DNA of 64,000 bases from Clostridia bacterium (GTDB taxonomy: Bacteria > Bacillota > DULZ01). The first letter of the stretch is position 1; each line of letters opens with the position of its first letter. This document shows, one piece after another, positions 6,736-45,138 of this stretch. Below the pieces are notes generated by a model that was given only the letters and a program-made list of their open reading frames with translations, did no database searches and was not told where the DNA came from. A program made the position numbers and the translations under genes. The stretch covers positions 38,284-102,283 of the forward strand of contig DULZ01000092.1 of the NCBI GenBank assembly GCA_012840125.1. The letters are read 5' to 3'.

Positions 6736-6852
6736 ATGGTTCCTTCGGGGATAGGTGGAATTCCTTACCGGCGGTAAAGCCCGCGAGCCGCACGGCGGTT
6801 GATCTGGTGAAATTCCAGAGCCGACAGTGAAAGTCTGGATGGGAGAAGGAGC
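6736..6852 (+). promoter_or_regulatory. FMN riboswitch (RFN element) aptamer
   Basis: Near-identity to the conserved RFN core (GGGG-AGGTG-AATTCC ... ACCGGCGGTA-AAGCCCGCGAGC ... GCCGACAGTGAAAGTCTGGATGGGAGAAGGA). P1 is formed by TCCTTC (6741-6746) and GAAGGA (6845-6850). Confidence 0.85.
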
Positions 6853-6931
6853 GAAAATCACAGTGTCCTGTGCTGTGATTCCGTCTGCTTTTTTCAACCC
6901 CGGAGGTATGCGCCGGGGTTTTGGTTTTGTA
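6853..6931 (+). terminator. riboswitch expression platform: two tandem hairpin + U-tract intrinsic terminators
   Basis: Hairpin ATCACAG/CTGTGAT followed by CTGCTTTTTT, then hairpin CCCCGG-AGGTATGCG-CCGGGG followed by TTTTGGTTTT. They lie between the aptamer and the ribU start. Confidence 0.5.
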
Positions 6932-13237: not shown

Positions 13238-13266
13238 GCATAAAAGTAACCTGGAGAGCCATAATA
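13238..13266 (+). promoter_or_regulatory. forespore sigma-G/sigma-F-type promoter (GCATA - 17 nt - CATAATA) upstream of the SASP gene
   Basis: Matches the GhATr-N17/18-CATnnTA consensus known for ssp genes. Read directly from the sequence. Confidence 0.45.
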
Positions 13267-13297: not shown

Positions 13298-13528
13298 ATG
13301 GCATCCGGACAAAGAAGCAACACAATCGTAGTTCCTCAAGCTCGTCAAGCTATGGACCAGTTGAAGTATGAAACTGCGCAAGAGATCGGCCTCCCGAACT
13401 ACAGGGGCTATCTCGGAGACATTCCTTCCCGCCTGAACGGTGCAGTCGGTGGTAACATGGTTCGTAAGATGATCCAAGCTTACCAGAGCTCTGTTGCTAA
13501 CCAAACCCCCGGGGGCGGGCAGCAGTAA
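13298..13528 (+). CDS. alpha/beta-type small acid-soluble spore protein (SASP)
   Basis: A 76-aa protein with the two conserved SASP blocks (KYE-A-E-G) and the germination-protease cleavage context. Confidence 0.9.
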   Translation: MASGQRSNTIVVPQARQAMDQLKYETAQEIGLPNYRGYLGDIPSRLNGAVGGNMVRKMIQAYQSSVANQTPGGGQQ

Positions 13529-13599: not shown

Positions 13600-14607
13600 T
13601 TACTGCAGGTATAAAGCATAATCCTGCGGGTTGATTGCCACGTGCAGTGCTTGGTTGAGACCGGAAGCTACGACCTTGGTAGTGCGGGTAATCAACTCAT
13701 CTATTTCCTTGGGAGTAACGGTAAGGCTGGTACCGAAAGAACCCAGCACTTGCTGAATGGATTTTTCCATGTTGTCCTGAGTGATGGATGGCTCCAGGGC
13801 CGGGTTGTTCTCCATTAAGCTGCCGAAGAGCTGAAAGGCCAGTACCAGGGCGTTGACCACGGTGGGGATCCCGACGGCGATGACCGGCACGCCCATGGTT
13901 TGCTGGTTGATGCCTTTCCTCTGGTTGCGGATGCCGGAACCGGGCGATATGCCCGTACTGGCCAGCTGGATGGTGCTGGCAATCCGGTCCACATTTCCTG
14001 CGGCCAGGGCATCGACGGCGATGACCAGTTTAGGTTGTACCTTTTCGATGACACCTTGAATAATCTCGGCCGTTTCGATGCCGGTGATACCCAGCACCCC
14101 CGGGGCCAGGGCGCACACGGGACGAAGCCCGCCGGTCAGCTCTTTTGGAGCCAGTTGAAACATATGCCTGGTCACCAGCATGGTGTTAACCACTTTCGGC
14201 CCTAAAGCATCGGGTGTAGCGTTCCAGTTACCCAGTCCTACCACCAGGATAGGGTCGGCGGGAGTGATATTAAAGCCCGCTATCATGTTTTTCAACGCAT
14301 CGGCAAAAACCCTGGCGATGTTTTTATGGGCGTCCCAGTTATTGTGGCGCAATTCGCCGGATTCAATGGTAACATAGGTGCCTTTGGGACGGCCCATGGA
14401 TTGTTCTCCTTCCTCATTGAGGATGGTGATGGTCGTGACTGTACCGTGGGAAAACCGTGCCTGTTCGTGCCTTACGCCGTGAATCTCCTGCCCCGTACTA
14501 CCCCGCAGCAGGTCATGGGCCTCTACGGCTAAGTCCATGTAAGGAGTCAAGTGTTGCGGCAATCGATAGTTGTTCAATGTCTTCACCTCAACTTTTGTCA
14601 TTTTCAT
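13600..14607 (-). CDS. gpr: germination protease GPR (SASP-degrading endopeptidase)
   Basis: A 335-aa protein that aligns along its length with B. subtilis Gpr (RTDLAVE, VGLGNWN-TPDALGP, LVTRH, APGV-GITGIET, IAVDALAA, GVPVIA-G-PTVV). Confidence 0.9.
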   Translation of the reverse strand: MKMTKVEVKTLNNYRLPQHLTPYMDLAVEAHDLLRGSTGQEIHGVRHEQARFSHGTVTTITILNEEGEQSMGRPKGTYVTIESGELRHNNWDAHKNIARVFADALKNMIAGFNITPADPILVVGLGNWNATPDALGPKVVNTMLVTRHMFQLAPKELTGGLRPVCALAPGVLGITGIETAEIIQGVIEKVQPKLVIAVDALAAGNVDRIASTIQLASTGISPGSGIRNQRKGINQQTMGVPVIAVGIPTVVNALVLAFQLFGSLMENNPALEPSITQDNMEKSIQQVLGSFGTSLTVTPKEIDELITRTTKVVASGLNQALHVAINPQDYALYLQ

Positions 14608-14694
14608 ATTTTCCCAAGGCAGCCATTTCTATTCCTATAGAGGAATTGTTTTTGCAGGTATATAATGGTATAATCTTGCTGAGGTGAAGACGCC

Positions 14695-14862
14695 ATGAAA
14701 GTACGCTGCTCCATTTGCGGTCGTGAGCAGGAAATCTCGAAAATACATAAAGATTACCAGAGGCTGGCCAGGGATCCCCAAGCTGCTTTTGTATGCAATT
14801 TGTGTACCAACCGGGTGCAGTACCAGGCCAGGGAGGCGCAAAAACCGTTACGGCCTGTTTGA
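14695..14862 (+). CDS. small CxxC ... CxxC zinc-ribbon protein (YlaI/DUF2197-like)
   Basis: A 55-aa protein (MKVRCSICGREQEI ... FVCNLCTNR), not in the ORF track. It lies downstream of a TATAAT-rich promoter-like region. Its 3' end overlaps the convergent acs stop by 15 nt. Confidence 0.45.
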   Translation: MKVRCSICGREQEISKIHKDYQRLARDPQAAFVCNLCTNRVQYQAREAQKPLRPV

Positions 14863-16995
14863 TTTTAGAGTGACCAGGGCGTCTACGGCTGTTACGCCTT
14901 GTCCTTGTTCCCCCACGATTAAGGGATTGATTTCCAGTTCCTCGATGATCCCTTCTAAGTCCAGGGCCAGGCGGCTGAGTTTCACTAGCATGTCGATAAG
15001 GGCATCCATATCCGCCGGTCCCAAATTGCGGAAGGACTTTAGTACGGGGAAGCTCTTCAGCCTTGCCAGCAAAGCTTCCGCTTCATACCTGGCCAGGGGA
15101 GGAACGGCGGACACAAAATCCCGCAATACTTCGACAAAAATGCCGCCCATGCCGGCAATCAGGACGTTGCCAAAGGTAACGTCGTTTTTTATGCCCAGAA
15201 TCATTTCTCTTCCCGGCGGGACCATCTCCGCTACCAGTACCCCGTCAATTTGGGCCTGGGGCGCCTTGGTCTTCACCTGCTGCATGATTTGTTCGTAAGC
15301 GGCCAAGACCTCCTCCCGGGTGTTCAGGTTGAGGCGGACACCGCCCACTTCCGTCTTGTGCAGGATGTCAGGCGATAGTATTTTCAGGGCCACCGGGAAG
15401 CCCGTTTGTTCCGCCAGCCTGGCTGCTTCCTCGGCGGAACGGGCCGCCGCCTCCCGGGTCACGGGGATGTCGTAGAGCTTAAGGAGTTCTTTTGCTTCTA
15501 GTTCTGTCAGCTGCCGGCGCCCGATCTTGGCTAGAAACTGTCGCCCTGTACCGGTGCCGGTGGCCTGGACCGGTGTATCCTGCTGCTTGTATCGGATATA
15601 CTGCCGGTGCCGTTCGGCATAGTTGGCCAGGGCGGCCAGGGCTCTTACCCCGTGTTCCACTTGCAGGGCATTGGGTAAACCGGCCTGCTTCATTAATGCC
15701 TGGGTCAGGGCGTGGGCTTGGTCATCATGACTCCAGCCAATGCACATCATGGGCTTGTCGGAAGCCAGGTACGCTGCTTCGAGCTGCTGGATGACGTGCC
15801 CGGCGCCTTCCCCTGCCACGTTAAAGTACAACAGCAGCAAGTCGATGTTGGGATCCTGGAGGACGGCATCCAGGGCTTGTTTTAAGAGCCCTTCTTCCAC
15901 CATGGCCTGGGAAGTCAAGTCCACCGGGTTATTGACTGTGACAAAAGACGGCAGAATGCTTTCCAATGCCCGGCGCGTGGCGGGGGATAACTGGGCCACT
16001 TCCAAGCCGGCCTCTACACACAGATCCGCTAGATAAACGCTGCCTCCACCTGAGGTGGATAGGATACCGATGCGCTTGCCCCGGGGAAATTTCCGGTCGG
16101 CAAACAAATGCAATAATGGAAAAATCTCCTCAATTCCTGTGATGCGGATAATCCCTTTTTGATCAAAGAAGCCTTGATAGATATCGTCATTACCCACCAT
16201 GGAACCGGTGTGGGATTGGGCCGCTTGAGCGGCAGCCTGGTGTTTGCCTACCTTCAGGATAATCAATGGTACTCCCTTAGCCAGCGCGGCATCGGCTATT
16301 TGGCAGAACTCCTTCCCGTTTCTGACCCCTTCCAGGTATGCCCCGATGGCTTTGACATCGGTGCAGTGAATCATGTAGTTGAGAAAATCGGTAAAGCTTA
16401 AATCAGCTTCGTTCCCGGTGCTTACCAGGATCTGGGCGCCCAGGCCCTGTTTTTGCGCTTCCGAATAAGTAATGGTGCCAAACCCGCCGCTTTGGCTGAT
16501 AAAAGCATATGCGTTTTCTTTCACTACTTTTTCCGGATGATGGCTGACGGCAAAATTCGCCATGACCTTGGCCGGGGCATTGACGATGCCCAGGCAGTTT
16601 GGACCGGCAAACCTGATGTTGCCCCTCCGGGCCACGCCGAGCAGCTCTTCCTGCAGCTTCTTGCCTGCAGGTCCTATTTCAGCAAAGCCGGAGGTAAATA
16701 TGATGGCTGTCTTGACACCGGTATCAACACATTCCTGCATCACCGCCAGGATGTCCCTGGCGGGTACCGAGATGATGGCCAGGTCTATGCTGTCATTGAT
16801 AGCGGTTAGACTGGGATAGCACTTAAGCCCATGGATCTCTTGATAACGCGGGTTAACCGGGTAAAGACGGCCCCCATACCCGGCAGAGAGCAAGGAGATC
16901 AGAGGTTGGCCGCCCGGTTTTAACGGATTGGCTGAAGCTCCGACAATGGCAATGCTCTGGGGATTGAACAAATGGTCGAGTTGCTGTACGTCCAT
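14848..16995 (-). CDS. acetyl-CoA synthetase (ADP-forming), fused alpha/beta chain (NDP-forming acyl-CoA synthetase family)
   Basis: A 716-aa protein with an N-terminal CoA-binding domain (IAIVGAS ... GQPL), a succinyl-CoA-synthetase-like ligase domain with a phosphohistidine loop, and a C-terminal ATP-grasp domain. There is no C-terminal GNAT domain. AAGGAGG RBS 6 nt before ATG 16995 (the ORF-track start 17097 is upstream of this RBS). Confidence 0.8.
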   Translation of the reverse strand: MDVQQLDHLFNPQSIAIVGASANPLKPGGQPLISLLSAGYGGRLYPVNPRYQEIHGLKCYPSLTAINDSIDLAIISVPARDILAVMQECVDTGVKTAIIFTSGFAEIGPAGKKLQEELLGVARRGNIRFAGPNCLGIVNAPAKVMANFAVSHHPEKVVKENAYAFISQSGGFGTITYSEAQKQGLGAQILVSTGNEADLSFTDFLNYMIHCTDVKAIGAYLEGVRNGKEFCQIADAALAKGVPLIILKVGKHQAAAQAAQSHTGSMVGNDDIYQGFFDQKGIIRITGIEEIFPLLHLFADRKFPRGKRIGILSTSGGGSVYLADLCVEAGLEVAQLSPATRRALESILPSFVTVNNPVDLTSQAMVEEGLLKQALDAVLQDPNIDLLLLYFNVAGEGAGHVIQQLEAAYLASDKPMMCIGWSHDDQAHALTQALMKQAGLPNALQVEHGVRALAALANYAERHRQYIRYKQQDTPVQATGTGTGRQFLAKIGRRQLTELEAKELLKLYDIPVTREAAARSAEEAARLAEQTGFPVALKILSPDILHKTEVGGVRLNLNTREEVLAAYEQIMQQVKTKAPQAQIDGVLVAEMVPPGREMILGIKNDVTFGNVLIAGMGGIFVEVLRDFVSAVPPLARYEAEALLARLKSFPVLKSFRNLGPADMDALIDMLVKLSRLALDLEGIIEELEINPLIVGEQGQGVTAVDALVTLKSNRP

Positions 16996-17080
16996 AATGT
17001 TCCTCCTTGTAGCACAATTTTGACATGAATAACTATTCAGCATTATCCGGGAATTTCCTGCCGCAAGGAGAAAACTGTCG

Positions 17081-17113
17081 AAAAAACAAAAAAGCACCGC
17101 TTGACGGCGGTGC
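17081..17113 (-). terminator. minus-strand intrinsic terminator lying ~85 nt UPSTREAM of the acs start (leader attenuator or sRNA 3' end)
   Basis: Minus-strand RNA reads GCACCGC-CGUCAA-GCGGUGC followed by UUUUUUGUUUUUU. No minus-strand gene lies upstream to be terminated. Confidence 0.55.
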
Positions 17114-17334
17114 CGGTTGACGTTGCCCTACAGGCGCTAGGTACCTTTTGACGCCTGTAGGGACTGGGAGAGGAGAAACCGGAGGAAGAGCTCATGGGGG
17201 AGGGTTATTAAGTAATAACCACTAAGCTCTTCTGTAAAGCGCTTTACCAGTAATTATTATGGGCTGTTCATGTCAATAATATTCAGGGCAGGGAAAAATT
17301 TTTTGTGGATTTGACGATATTTGCGGTAAGGAAC

Positions 17335-17363
17335 TCAATTGCCATGACAGGATATGCTATAAT
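17335..17363 (+). promoter_or_regulatory. candidate rsmD promoter with an extended -10 (TGcTATAAT) and a weak -35
   Basis: TGCTATAAT at 17355-17363, 22 nt upstream of the rsmD ATG. Confidence 0.35.
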
Positions 17364-17384
17364 AGCTGTGGGTGGATATGGAAA

Positions 17385-17957
17385 ATGCGGATCATTGCAG
17401 GAAAAAGGAAAGGGTTGCTGCTCCAGGCACCAAAAGGATATGATACCAGACCGACTATTGACCGGGTCAAAGAAGCCATGTTTAACGTTATTCAAGGCTA
17501 TGAGCAGGATGCCCATGTTTTGGATCTTTTCGCCGGGACCGGAGCCCTCGGTCTCGAGGCATTAAGCCGGGGAGCTAGGCTGGCTGTTTTTGTGGAGAAA
17601 CATCCGCCGGCTTGGCGGGTTTTGTCGGCCAACATTGCTAAAGCCGGTTTTCAAGATCAAGCTGTCGTGATTAAAGGTGATGCTTTAGTTTTCCTCCGGC
17701 AATACGAAGGTATGCCTTTCGATTTGATTTTTATCGATCCCCCCTACGGCAGCGATCTGGTGGTCCAGGTGTTAACCTCCATCTGCCGGAGAGGATTGCT
17801 GGCCCCTGGCGGGCTGGTGGTTTTGGAAACGGGAGTTAAGTACGGGCCTGTTCCGGCAGTACCCGGTTTACAATTACTAAAAGAGAAGATATACGGCGAT
17901 ACCATGCTTTTATTTTTTGAGCCTGCAAAGGAGGAAGAAGGTCATGGACGTATTTGA
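17385..17957 (+). CDS. rsmD: 16S rRNA (guanine966-N2)-methyltransferase RsmD
   Basis: A 190-aa protein with the DPPY motif and N-terminus MRIIAG-KG, typical of RsmD (YlbH). Confidence 0.85.
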   Translation: MRIIAGKRKGLLLQAPKGYDTRPTIDRVKEAMFNVIQGYEQDAHVLDLFAGTGALGLEALSRGARLAVFVEKHPPAWRVLSANIAKAGFQDQAVVIKGDALVFLRQYEGMPFDLIFIDPPYGSDLVVQVLTSICRRGLLAPGGLVVLETGVKYGPVPAVPGLQLLKEKIYGDTMLLFFEPAKEEEGHGRI

Positions 17958-18402
17958 AATGCTCGATGAGTTGGAAGACATCATCGAAAGCGGTGCCAGG
18001 GTGCCCCTGACCGGCAAAGTGCTGGTGGATGCGGAAGAGGTTTTGGATTGCATCGATCAAATCCGCTCCGTATTGCCGGAAGAGATTCGGCAAGCCCGTT
18101 GGATTGCCAAGGAAAGAGAACGGGTGCTGGCCGATGCCAAGCAGGAAGCGGAAGAAACGCTGAAAAGAGCTCAAACCCAGATCGAACAAATGGCCCTCGA
18201 GAACGAAGTGGTTAAAATAGCGGAGCAAAAGGCCCAGGAGATTTTAGCCAGGGCCAAAGCCATTGAATTGGAGATGCGTGACGGAGCTACGGCTTATGCG
18301 GAGCAGATCTTGGAACAACTGGAGAACAATTTGAATAAGGCGCTGGAGAGCATTAGGGAAAGCAAATCTGAGCTCCAGGGCCTGAAAGCACAAGTAGGAT
18401 AA
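17947..18402 (+). CDS. hypothetical coiled-coil protein (occupies the position held by coaD in Bacillus)
   Basis: A ~151-aa protein. AAGGAGGAAG RBS 7 nt before ATG 17947, which overlaps the rsmD 3' end by 11 nt. The acidic N-terminal segment is followed by a long heptad-like region (EQKAQEILARAKAIELEMRD ...). Confidence 0.5.
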   Translation, partial: DVFEMLDELEDIIESGARVPLTGKVLVDAEEVLDCIDQIRSVLPEEIRQARWIAKERERVLADAKQEAEETLKRAQTQIEQMALENEVVKIAEQKAQEILARAKAIELEMRDGATAYAEQILEQLENNLNKALESIRESKSELQGLKAQVG

Positions 18403-43525: not shown

Positions 43526-43770
43526 GTGCATAACCTCCTTAATATTGTTCTTTTCCTGGTTTGTCGTCGGTTCCCGGTGCCGTTGTCACCCCCCGTTTTC
43601 AGGATTTGCGGCGGTATGCTCTTGCCGGAGTATTCTTTCCTTAATATTAAACGTCAAGGATAAATTTCCTGCTGGAGATTCAGAAATAAACACATATCAG
43701 GCAATGTTTTTGAAATTTCTCAAAAATAGTTTTGCTAGAAAATGCTTATCAAAAAACAAGGAGGGACGAG

Positions 43771-44541
43771 ATGGGTTTTCCGGGCTCAATCAAGGAACTC
43801 CGGCGCCTGCTGGATCAGAACGGTATGCCCGGCATGGAGGATCCCTTGTGGGAAATGCTGGCTGATGACCACCGGATCGCCGTGCAAGAACTCTATCAAA
43901 AGCTGCTGAAAGAGCGCCAACGACTGGAAGAACTGTTGACTTGGGAAAAGAAATGGGGCAGCCCGGCGACCCTGGTCGCTGGGGTTGATGAAGCCGGCCG
44001 GGGGCCTTTGGCGGGGCCGGTGACTGCTGCCGCCGTCATCCTGGATGTTTCCGTGCCCATTCCGGGATTAAATGATTCCAAGCAGTTGTCTCCTGTGAAA
44101 AGAAGGGAGCTGGCCGGGCGGATTAAGGAAAAAGCGAAGGCCTGGGCGGTGGGATGGGCTTCCGTAGAAGAGATCGACCGGTTGAATATTAGACGAGCCA
44201 GCTTGTTGGCCATGAAACGTGCGGTGGCCGCCCTGCCGGTACAACCTAGTATCTTGTTGATCGATGGAAATGCCGAGATTCCTGATTTGGACTACAGGCA
44301 GCAAACGGTGGTGGGAGGCGACCGGGCATCTGCTTCCATAGCTGCCGCATCAATCCTGGCAAAAGTGACCCGGGATGCTTATATGGAGGACCTGCATTGG
44401 CGGTATCCTTGCTATGGCTTTGACAAGCATAAAGGATACCCAACCAGGGAGCATTACGCCGCCATAGAAAAGTACGGCTTGAGCCCGGTCCACCGGAAGT
44501 CATTTCGCCGGGAGAAACGCCTGGAGCAGCAGATATTTTAG
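43771..44541 (+). CDS. rnhB: ribonuclease HII (with a Firmicute-type N-terminal extension)
   Basis: VAGVDEAGRGPLAGPV catalytic N-motif and a DSK box. AAGGAGGG RBS before ATG 43771. Confidence 0.85.
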   Translation: MGFPGSIKELRRLLDQNGMPGMEDPLWEMLADDHRIAVQELYQKLLKERQRLEELLTWEKKWGSPATLVAGVDEAGRGPLAGPVTAAAVILDVSVPIPGLNDSKQLSPVKRRELAGRIKEKAKAWAVGWASVEEIDRLNIRRASLLAMKRAVAALPVQPSILLIDGNAEIPDLDYRQQTVVGGDRASASIAAASILAKVTRDAYMEDLHWRYPCYGFDKHKGYPTREHYAAIEKYGLSPVHRKSFRREKRLEQQIF

Positions 44542-44784
44542 CTTATTAACAGGTTAACACTCTGCCGGTTTTAATTTGATCTTACAAAAGGTTGACAAGT
44601 TTCTTGCAAAAAAGTTTAGGGAGCCAGGAAGGTAAAAGAAAAGCAATGTAGAATAGCTATTATGGTTGTCGGGACCATTCACGTAAAAATATCGACTGGT
44701 CACCCCGTAAATTATTCCTAACATCCGCTAATTGTTTGGGCAATACAAAATTTAAAAAATTGCAAAAGAAAGGGGGGAAGAGGG

Positions 44785-45138
44785 ATGGAACAATACCTGT
44801 CCATAGGTATTTTTTTCCTGGTAGCTTTGGCTTTTGGTATTGTAGTGCTGTTGGTGGCGGGCTTGGTGCGTCCTAAGAAGCCTTCGCCGGAAAAACTGTC
44901 GACCTACGAATGCGGCTTGGAAACGCAAGGACCGACGTGGGTACAGTTTAAGATCAGTTATTTTATGTATGCTTTGGTGTTCTTGATTTTTGACGTTGAG
45001 ACCATTTTCCTGTATCCGTGGGCTGTTGCTTTTCAAAAACTGGGACTTTTTGCGTTTGTTGAAATGCTGATCTTTATCGGTATTCTGGTTGTTGGCCTAT
45101 GGTACGCTTGGAAGGAAGGAGCATTGGAATGGCTGTAA
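44785..45138 (+). CDS. nuoA: NADH-quinone oxidoreductase subunit A
   Basis: A 117-aa, 3-TM protein (YECG-E, FDVE-IFLYPWA). Confidence 0.85.

Follow-up and report, generated by a model that had tools for sequence, protein, structure and literature searches.

The minus strand of the window (the whole stretch of DNA analysed, 64,000 nucleotides) very probably carries, at about 17248-17081, a CsfG orthologue, that is, a free-standing trans-acting sRNA of endospore-forming Bacillota. The CsfG family, its strand and its regulation were already described between 2011 and 2013, and what the window adds is a Clostridia-type variant with an extra hairpin. The initial annotation of this region had favoured a riboswitch or attenuator of the neighbouring gene for ADP-forming acetyl-CoA synthetase (acs), and had given the 3' end of a divergent sRNA of about 200 nt as a fallback. 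The fallback turned out to be essentially right, the sRNA in question being CsfG with a predicted length of ~168 nt. The features on which the analysis draws are the following.

14848-16995, minus strand: acs, ADP-forming acetyl-CoA synthetase, with CoA_binding, Succ_CoA_lig and ATP-grasp_5 domains.
17081-17248, minus strand: predicted CsfG sRNA transcript of ~168 nt, with the 5' end predicted from the -10 and the 3' end at the terminator U-tract.
17081-17114, minus strand: intrinsic terminator with an 8-bp G+C-rich stem, a 6-nt loop and a 13-nt U-tract.
17126-17162, minus strand: P3 hairpin, whose 11-bp stem can reach 14 bp when flanking pairs are counted, closed by a 15-nt loop.
17166-17202, minus strand: CU-rich core CUCCCCCAUGAGCUCUUCCUCCGGUUUCUCCUCUCCC, containing the C-rich and anti-Shine-Dalgarno motifs.
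17185-17232, minus strand: P2 helix, in which GAAGAGCUUA (17232-17223) pairs with UGAGCUCUUC (17194-17185), enclosing P2a and the C-rich loop CCCUCCCCCA.
17203-17220, minus strand: P2a hairpin GGUUAUU-ACUU-AAUAACC, inserted in the P2 loop.
17234-17247, minus strand: P1, the 5' hairpin GUAAA-GCGC-UUUAC, from RNAalifold on five close relatives.
17255-17284, minus strand: candidate sigma-G / sigma-F-like promoter, with the -35 GAATA at 17284-17280, an 18-nt spacer and the -10 CATAATA at 17261-17255.
17385-17957, plus strand: rsmD (formerly ylbH), Pfam Cons_hypoth95, E 1.8e-52.

Read on the minus strand, the terminator is formed by GCACCGC (17113-17107), the loop CGTCAA and GCGGTGC (17100-17094), and is followed by TTTTTTGTTTTTT at 17093-17081. 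As RNA this T-run is UUUUUUGUUUUUU, directly 3' of GCACCGC-CGUCAA-GCGGUGC (17113-17081 in all). Six of the eight pairs in the stem are G-C, and a terminator scan independently recovered the 8-pair stem at 17114-17093 on the minus strand. Between the end of the T-run and the acs start codon, an ATG at 16995 with the Shine-Dalgarno sequence AAGGAGGA, there are 86 nt, in agreement with the ~85 nt given earlier. A bidirectional terminator was considered and rejected, since on the plus strand there is neither a T-run nor a gene ending at this point. The other structural observations of the initial annotation were confirmed as well. The P3 stem has the arms CCCTACAGGCG (17162-17152) and CGCCTGTAGGG (17136-17126) separated by a loop of 15 nt; the two palindromes are present, the one forming P2a at 17220-17203 (GGTTATTACTTAATAACC, also written GGUUAUUACUUAAUAACC) and the one forming P1 at 17247-17234 (GTAAAGCGCTTTAC, also written GUAAAGCGCUUUAC); and the CU-rich tract 5' of the terminator lies at 17202-17166, with the window carrying the stretch CCCCAUGAGCUCUUCCUCCGGUUUCUCCUCUCC. 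The region had been called unusually structured, and the minus strand of 17060-17300 indeed folds with a minimum free energy (MFE) of -68.9 kcal/mol, z = -3.65 against shuffles. It is also correct that no minus-strand gene lies upstream for this hairpin to terminate, the next gene in that direction being the plus-strand rsmD. Together with the promoter this predicts a short free-standing transcript of ~168 nt with its own Rho-independent terminator.

At its gathering thresholds Rfam matched the whole window only with an FMN riboswitch elsewhere and gave nothing in the element region, and to this extent the earlier statement that no known family fits the element holds. However, a permissive Rfam scan of 16900-17500 gave one clear match, on the opposite strand, to RF00516, the 'ylbH leader' (plus strand, 17083-17237). 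This match covers the full model (1-122) and scores 34.6 bits, E 1.2e-5, against a gathering score of 50; the score stays below gathering because of insertions compared to the Bacilli seed, namely P2a and a longer P3. At its 5' end the RF00516 model opens with an A-run and then a G+C-rich hairpin, i.e. an intrinsic terminator read backwards. By northern analysis, Dambach et al. detected the ylbH leader region of B. subtilis solely from the reverse strand, with a strong signal, and they identify this reverse-strand RNA as CsfG, the sRNA of Marchais et al. 2011, RNA Biol 8:358. RF00516 is the CsfG family stored reverse-complemented, under the name 'ylbH leader'. We also built a covariance model, R1, from 29 Bacilli transcripts only, in the CsfG orientation and with the window and its relatives excluded. 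The best match of R1 in the whole window was on the minus strand at 17268-17088, with 28.9 bits and an E-value of 1.2e-6 (these E-values are rough). The RNAalifold structure underlying R1 took in only P2 and the terminator, and P2 is the counterpart both of the helix in R1 and of the 3' hairpin in the Rfam ylbH model. The proposal of a new class of regulatory RNA is not supported, as the matches to the reversed RF00516 and to R1 place the element in the described CsfG family.

CsfG of B. subtilis is an RNA of ~136 nt on the strand opposite ylbH, according to the literature, where it is described as conserved among endospore formers with the exception of C. difficile, as carrying strongly conserved CU-rich segments, both within loops and between the helices, and associating with Hfq (Dambach et al.), as controlled by sigma-F/G and restricted to the forespore (papers citing Marchais et al. 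2011), and as one of three C-rich-region sRNAs of B. subtilis, mentioned there without a known target. Genes for the germination protease Gpr, a SASP and YlbJ are present in the window, and by this gene content its host, an uncultured Clostridia-class organism from biogas reactors whose genome occurs in SRR35946764 and related runs and in DRR066655, is an endospore former. For the window itself, the present analysis establishes at the level of sequence the family membership, the synteny with rsmD, the promoter motif, the terminator and the helices with compensatory changes; expression during sporulation in the forespore and the association with Hfq are carried over from the literature on B. 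subtilis and B. anthracis only.

The assignment of the RNA to the minus strand, on which we agree with the initial annotation, rests on the promoter, the terminator, the wobble-pair counts and the B. subtilis northern blots. Covariation was counted only on five close relatives (the window and loci L015, L059, L135 and L149), since on the 3' side of the core MAFFT gave no reliable alignment of the 22 Clostridia-type transcripts. Among the five, the helices P1, P2, P2a and P3 had 97.8% of their cells paired, against 39-51% when the partners were slid, and four pairs were changed on both sides, a modest level of support. One pair of P1 changed from U-A to C-G and another to G-U, and in locus L071 the same hairpin reads GUGAA...UUCAC. 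In P3, three pairs show compensatory changes and 98.6% of the cells are paired across the five relatives. The P2a hairpin characterises CsfG of the Clostridia class, is not present in Bacilli, and takes the form GGUUCA...UGAACC in L063 and L099, with pairing kept. Wobble cells in the helices of the five relatives number 12 G-U versus 1 A-C, and standard pairs in these helices amount to 97.8% on the minus strand versus 91.8% on the plus strand; one pair in P2 is U-G, which on the other strand would turn into an A-C mismatch. Over all loci listed, the strand-symmetric helices contain 162 internal G-T versus 84 A-C mismatches, counts that are phylogenetically non-independent.

The folding energies point the other way. 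The window element has an MFE of -62.0 kcal/mol on the plus strand versus -59.0 kcal/mol on the minus strand, and in 82 loci, among the matches listed, the reverse complement folds better by a mean of 1.08 kcal/mol. MFE slightly favours the plus strand because the purine-rich strand gains G-U pairs. This comparison counts against the CsfG strand, but we give more weight to the promoter, the terminator, the wobble pairs and the northern blots in the literature. The slightly better fold, and the plus-strand match of RF00516 upstream of rsmD, would be expected if the element were a plus-strand 5' leader of rsmD/ylbH, an orphan riboswitch, as in Rfam and Barrick 2004. We regard this reading as extremely unlikely. 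No plus-sense RNA is detected in B. subtilis, where Dambach et al. report a strong signal from the reverse strand only; the RF00516 model begins, as mentioned above, with a terminator in reverse; both wobble counts (162:84 and 12:1) favour the minus strand; and it is only on the minus strand that forespore promoters and terminators show conservation. In addition, an extended -10, TGcTATAAT, is found on the plus strand at 17355-17363, between the element and the rsmD ATG and 22 nt before this ATG. The position of this motif makes a start of the rsmD mRNA downstream of the element probable.

The B. subtilis consensus sequences for forespore promoters are GHATR-N17/18-CATnHTA for sigma-G and GywTA-N15-GGnrAnAnTw for sigma-F. 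By comparison with this consensus we take GAATA-N18-CATAATA, upstream of the predicted RNA, to be a forespore promoter, and from the motif we infer its dependence on sigma-F/G. The -10 of the window matches at 7/7 positions and is located 55 nt from the core. Using an anchored scoring scheme with a flank control, a promoter with G[ACT]ATA, a spacer of 17-18 nt and a CATAATA/CATACTA-like heptamer was found in the CsfG orientation in 105 of 113 loci among the matches listed, with the heptamer matching at 5/7 positions or better in 91 of these 105. On the control (opposite) flank of the same listed loci, 89 of 113 had no promoter anchor and the score never exceeded 5/7. The motif usually lies 50-60 nt from the core, with a mode of 54-57 nt in Bacilli, and L049, from the B. 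subtilis group, has GTATA-N18-CATACTA at 54 nt. Strict sigma-F/G regular expressions were too narrow and recovered 22 and 34 of the 113 loci among the matches listed. Over both strands of the 64-kb window the strict motif occurs in two copies only, where 0.7 would be expected by chance, and the second copy (13238-13266) is located 31 nt upstream of the SASP gene; SASP genes are the classic sigma-G-dependent class. A hairpin with a T-run follows the core on its 3' side in 101 of 113 loci in the CsfG orientation, compared to 18 of 113 in the opposite one (among the matches listed). The terminator stems are wholly different in sequence among the relatives and always form.

To follow the element across genomes we used a degenerate core pattern of 33 nt with 22 specified bases, built from the window and the Rfam consensus. 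Exact matches to it were found at no fewer than 120 (at least 120) Bacillota genome loci, and by our own arithmetic ~0.07 chance matches would be expected in 596 Gb. Among the matches listed, the genomes bearing the core are nearly all spore-forming Bacillota, and include Bacillaceae (with the B. subtilis and B. cereus groups), Brevibacillus, Alicyclobacillus and Thermoactinomycetaceae on the one hand, and Syntrophomonadaceae, Moorellales, Thermoanaerobacterales and Dethiobacter on the other. A second, Clostridia-type pattern matched 32 metagenome loci. Within the window the core occurs once, and the idea of a repeat or mobile element was rejected on this ground. The gene directly upstream of the element, in divergent orientation, is rsmD in 112 of 120 genome loci (among the matches listed) and in 29 of 32 metagenome loci. 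Around the element of the window we find rsmD, ylbJ (Gate), a patatin gene and gpr, a neighbourhood that agrees with ylbH-ylbJ-ylbK of B. subtilis.

These neighbourhoods bear directly on the acs riboswitch of the initial annotation, a cis-acting element in the 5' leader of the acs mRNA whose terminator would be switched by a metabolite or a protein. The position of the terminator, 86 nt upstream of acs and on the same strand, fits such a device, as does a scan that found no sigma-70-type promoter in the 85 nt between terminator and acs. The UUCCUCC of the CU-rich tract is complementary to the acs Shine-Dalgarno GGAGGAA, with a duplex energy of -18.4 kcal/mol. The element travels with rsmD and not with acs, however, and acs is found downstream in just 2 of 152 other loci among the matches listed (L059 and L135, both Moorellales-like). 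The downstream gene is convergent in 50 of the 66 loci with a clear call (among the matches listed), and also in L015, the closest relative among the matches listed by identity of RsmD (62%) and YlbJ (66%). Moreover, the 5' arm of the terminator has no complementary stretch of 6 nt or more anywhere upstream, and therefore there is no antiterminator. The complementarity to the Shine-Dalgarno is real but generic, GGAGGAA being present in Shine-Dalgarno position before 5 ORFs of the window and GGAGG before 46; we judged it by these counts, and a ranking of initiation regions by duplex energy was confounded by the choice of start codon. The conserved part of the element is identical in genomes where acs is not a neighbour, and the CU-rich core is invariant there. 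A riboswitch of acs is therefore very unlikely, and the acs gene of the window should not carry an annotation as riboswitch-controlled. The adjacency of acs is a lineage-specific accident of gene order, limited to a small clade.

A different connection to the downstream genes would leave CsfG in place as an sRNA and give it a second role, in which partial read-through of the terminator would carry forespore transcription into acs and then gpr in the window, and into gpr alone in many Clostridia. The forespore gene gpr is downstream and on the same strand in 8 genome loci (among the matches listed) and in 13 of 32 metagenome loci, with acs lying between csfG and gpr in the window, L059 and L135. 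Locus L045 has ~15 nt between the U-tract of csfG and the start codon of gpr, leaving no room for a separate gpr promoter, and this gene arrangement argues that read-through exists somewhere in the csfG family. The scan result for the interval between the window terminator and acs, without a sigma-70-type promoter, is also in line with read-through, but acs may use a promoter type outside the model of the scan. Against this second role, the terminator of the window is strong, since 6 of its 8 pairs are G-C and its U-tract measures 13 nt, and the gpr gene of the window has its own forespore-like promoter candidate, GAATA-N15-GGAAAATATG, near 14634. On balance we consider such a dual role unlikely in the window. 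If it were true, csfG would be the first element of a forespore transcription unit reaching gpr in Clostridia-class spore formers, and in the lineage of the window substrate-level ATP formation from acetyl-CoA would join the forespore programme.

We also considered a small protein, given that the minus strand contains an ATG-initiated ORF of 50 codons at 17195-17043. The ATG of this ORF falls within the core, at CCCCATGAGC, where most family members read CCCCATAAGC and have no start codon (CAUAAG instead of CAUGAG); the ORF furthermore runs across the terminator and lacks a Shine-Dalgarno sequence. The probability of this reading is practically negligible.

Returning to CsfG as a free-standing sRNA, the following mode of action can be proposed. 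In the forespore, RNA polymerase with sigma-G or sigma-F would initiate ~7 nt downstream of 17255 (predicted range 6-9 nt), divergently from rsmD, and transcription would stop at the strong terminator of the element itself, 86 nt before the acs start, to give an sRNA of ~168 nt. This RNA is predicted to fold into P1, a long P2 that presents a C-rich motif in its loop together with P2a, an unpaired CU-rich tract, a variable P3 and the terminator, so that the invariant C- and CU-rich segments would be accessible both in the loop of P2 and in the stretch that separates P2 from P3. The CU-rich anti-Shine-Dalgarno tract looks functional, and the CU-rich core is the presumed seed region for pairing with mRNAs. 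These segments may pair with purine-rich ribosome-binding sites of target mRNAs in the forespore, and such pairing would lower their translation or stability. By analogy with RoxS/RsaE and FsrA, pairing of the CU-rich segments with ribosome-binding sites would be the most likely mechanism. In RoxS and FsrA, according to the literature, C-rich segments pair with purine-rich ribosome-binding regions of mRNAs, and a common mode of action has been proposed there for CsfG, RoxS/RsaE and FsrA. Like the window RNA, RoxS/RsaE and FsrA are short terminated sRNAs in which unpaired C-rich motifs pair, or in our case may pair, with Shine-Dalgarno regions. They are not homologous to the window RNA, however, their regulators (ResDE and Fur) and genomic locations are different, and the permissive Rfam scan of 16900-17500 gave no match to either family.

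The consequences for annotation are straightforward. Rfam misses CsfG in Clostridia-class genomes, where the family falls below the gathering threshold, and where RF00516 does match, strand and type are labelled wrongly, as a cis-regulatory leader of ylbH. The apparent 'unannotated riboswitch' of the window arose because Rfam stores the family on the wrong strand and with a Bacilli-only seed. A broader and correctly oriented CsfG model could be seeded with the Clostridia-type variant, which has P2a and a longer P3, and with the ~150 loci of the present analysis. The strict maintenance of the 33-nt core across Bacilli and Clostridia, and the frequent linkage to gpr in Clostridia, also provide constraints for a search for targets.

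Compared to CsfG of B. subtilis (S547), the window RNA has a near-identical CU-rich core, a P2 around a C-rich loop, the divergent position from rsmD/ylbH, a sigma-F/G-type promoter equally far from the core, an intrinsic terminator and a spore-forming host. It differs in being longer (~168 nt versus ~136 nt), in having P2a inside the P2 loop where the B. subtilis RNA has none, in its P1, and in a P2 that is a perfect 10 bp without a bulge. It stays below the gathering score of RF00516, and its downstream neighbour is the co-oriented acs, whereas in Bacillus it is ylbG. The Clostridia-class variants (L015, L059, L135, L071, L149 and others) have the same order of promoter, P1, P2, P2a, core, P3 and terminator as the window. 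The sequences of their P1, P3 and terminator stems differ from those of the window, with compensatory changes. L059 and L135 also share the downstream order acs then gpr, whereas at most loci of the Clostridia-class variant gpr follows directly, without acs.

In genomes of the class Clostridia, the germination protease gene gpr is usually the next gene after csfG, the predicted forespore sRNA gene, and lies on the same strand. This order was found in the following related loci carrying the CsfG core:

L045 (2865-2950), L094, L097, L102, L118, L129, L130, L134, L138, L142 and L153

At L045 the start codon of gpr follows the U-tract of the csfG terminator by only about 15 nt, and this spacing implies that gpr would be co-transcribed with csfG there by read-through of the terminator. 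In the window, and also at L059 and L135, acs (the ADP-forming acetyl-CoA synthetase gene) is interposed between csfG and gpr. A small ORF of 55 aa (14695-14862, plus strand) lies antisense to acs, overlapping its 3' end, and has a weak DUF2197 match in the precomputed annotation of identical contigs.

The 64 kb were scanned for the strict sigma-G-type motif found upstream of csfG, and besides that copy there was a single further match, which precedes a SASP gene. As the sole other strict match, it provides an internal control for forespore promoters in this organism. A forespore-like candidate was seen before gpr:

13238-13266, plus strand: strict sigma-G-type motif GCATA-N17-CATAATA, 31 nt before the SASP gene
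13298-13528, plus strand: SASP gene
14605-14634, minus strand: GAATA-N15-GGAAAATATG, roughly 30-60 nt before the start of gpr

This last element is a candidate sigma-F/G-like promoter for gpr, in which case gpr in the window need not rely on upstream transcription.

On the other side of csfG, these features were seen before and after rsmD (ylbH):

17355-17363, plus strand: extended -10 element TGcTATAAT, 22 nt before the rsmD ATG (17385)
17944-18402, plus strand: ORF of 152 aa, coiled-coil-like with many charged residues, with a GGAGGAA Shine-Dalgarno sequence

The rsmD leader is thus probably very short, with the CsfG region outside it. The 152-aa ORF, for which no Pfam match was found, comes after rsmD, in the place that coaD (ylbI) has in Bacillus.

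In a comparison covering 17081-17250 of the window together with 82 related loci, the purine-rich strand, which is the reverse complement of CsfG, folded slightly more stably than CsfG itself (mean difference 1.08 kcal/mol). For this family, then, minimum free energy misleads as a guide to strand, and this may explain why the original description placed the family on the wrong one.

In a scan of the whole window, one Rfam family alone reached its gathering score:

6737-6854, plus strand: FMN riboswitch (RF00050), 116 bits

The CsfG covariance model, built from 29 Bacilli transcripts, gave a second, weak match at 44709-44852 on the minus strand (13.4 bits; E 0.04, on a rough E-value scale), which includes CUCUUCCCCCC and is located in an A+T-rich gap with plus-strand ORFs on either side (43732-44541 and 44785-45138). 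This match probably arose by chance; alternatively, it may be another C-rich sRNA.

Three loci, L068, L070 and L078, are on contigs whose labels name MAGs of Acetobacteraceae or Desulfovibrio(naceae). They have csfG and rsmD in the Bacillota arrangement, with ylbJ as well in L068 and L070, and are probably mis-binned Bacillota contigs.
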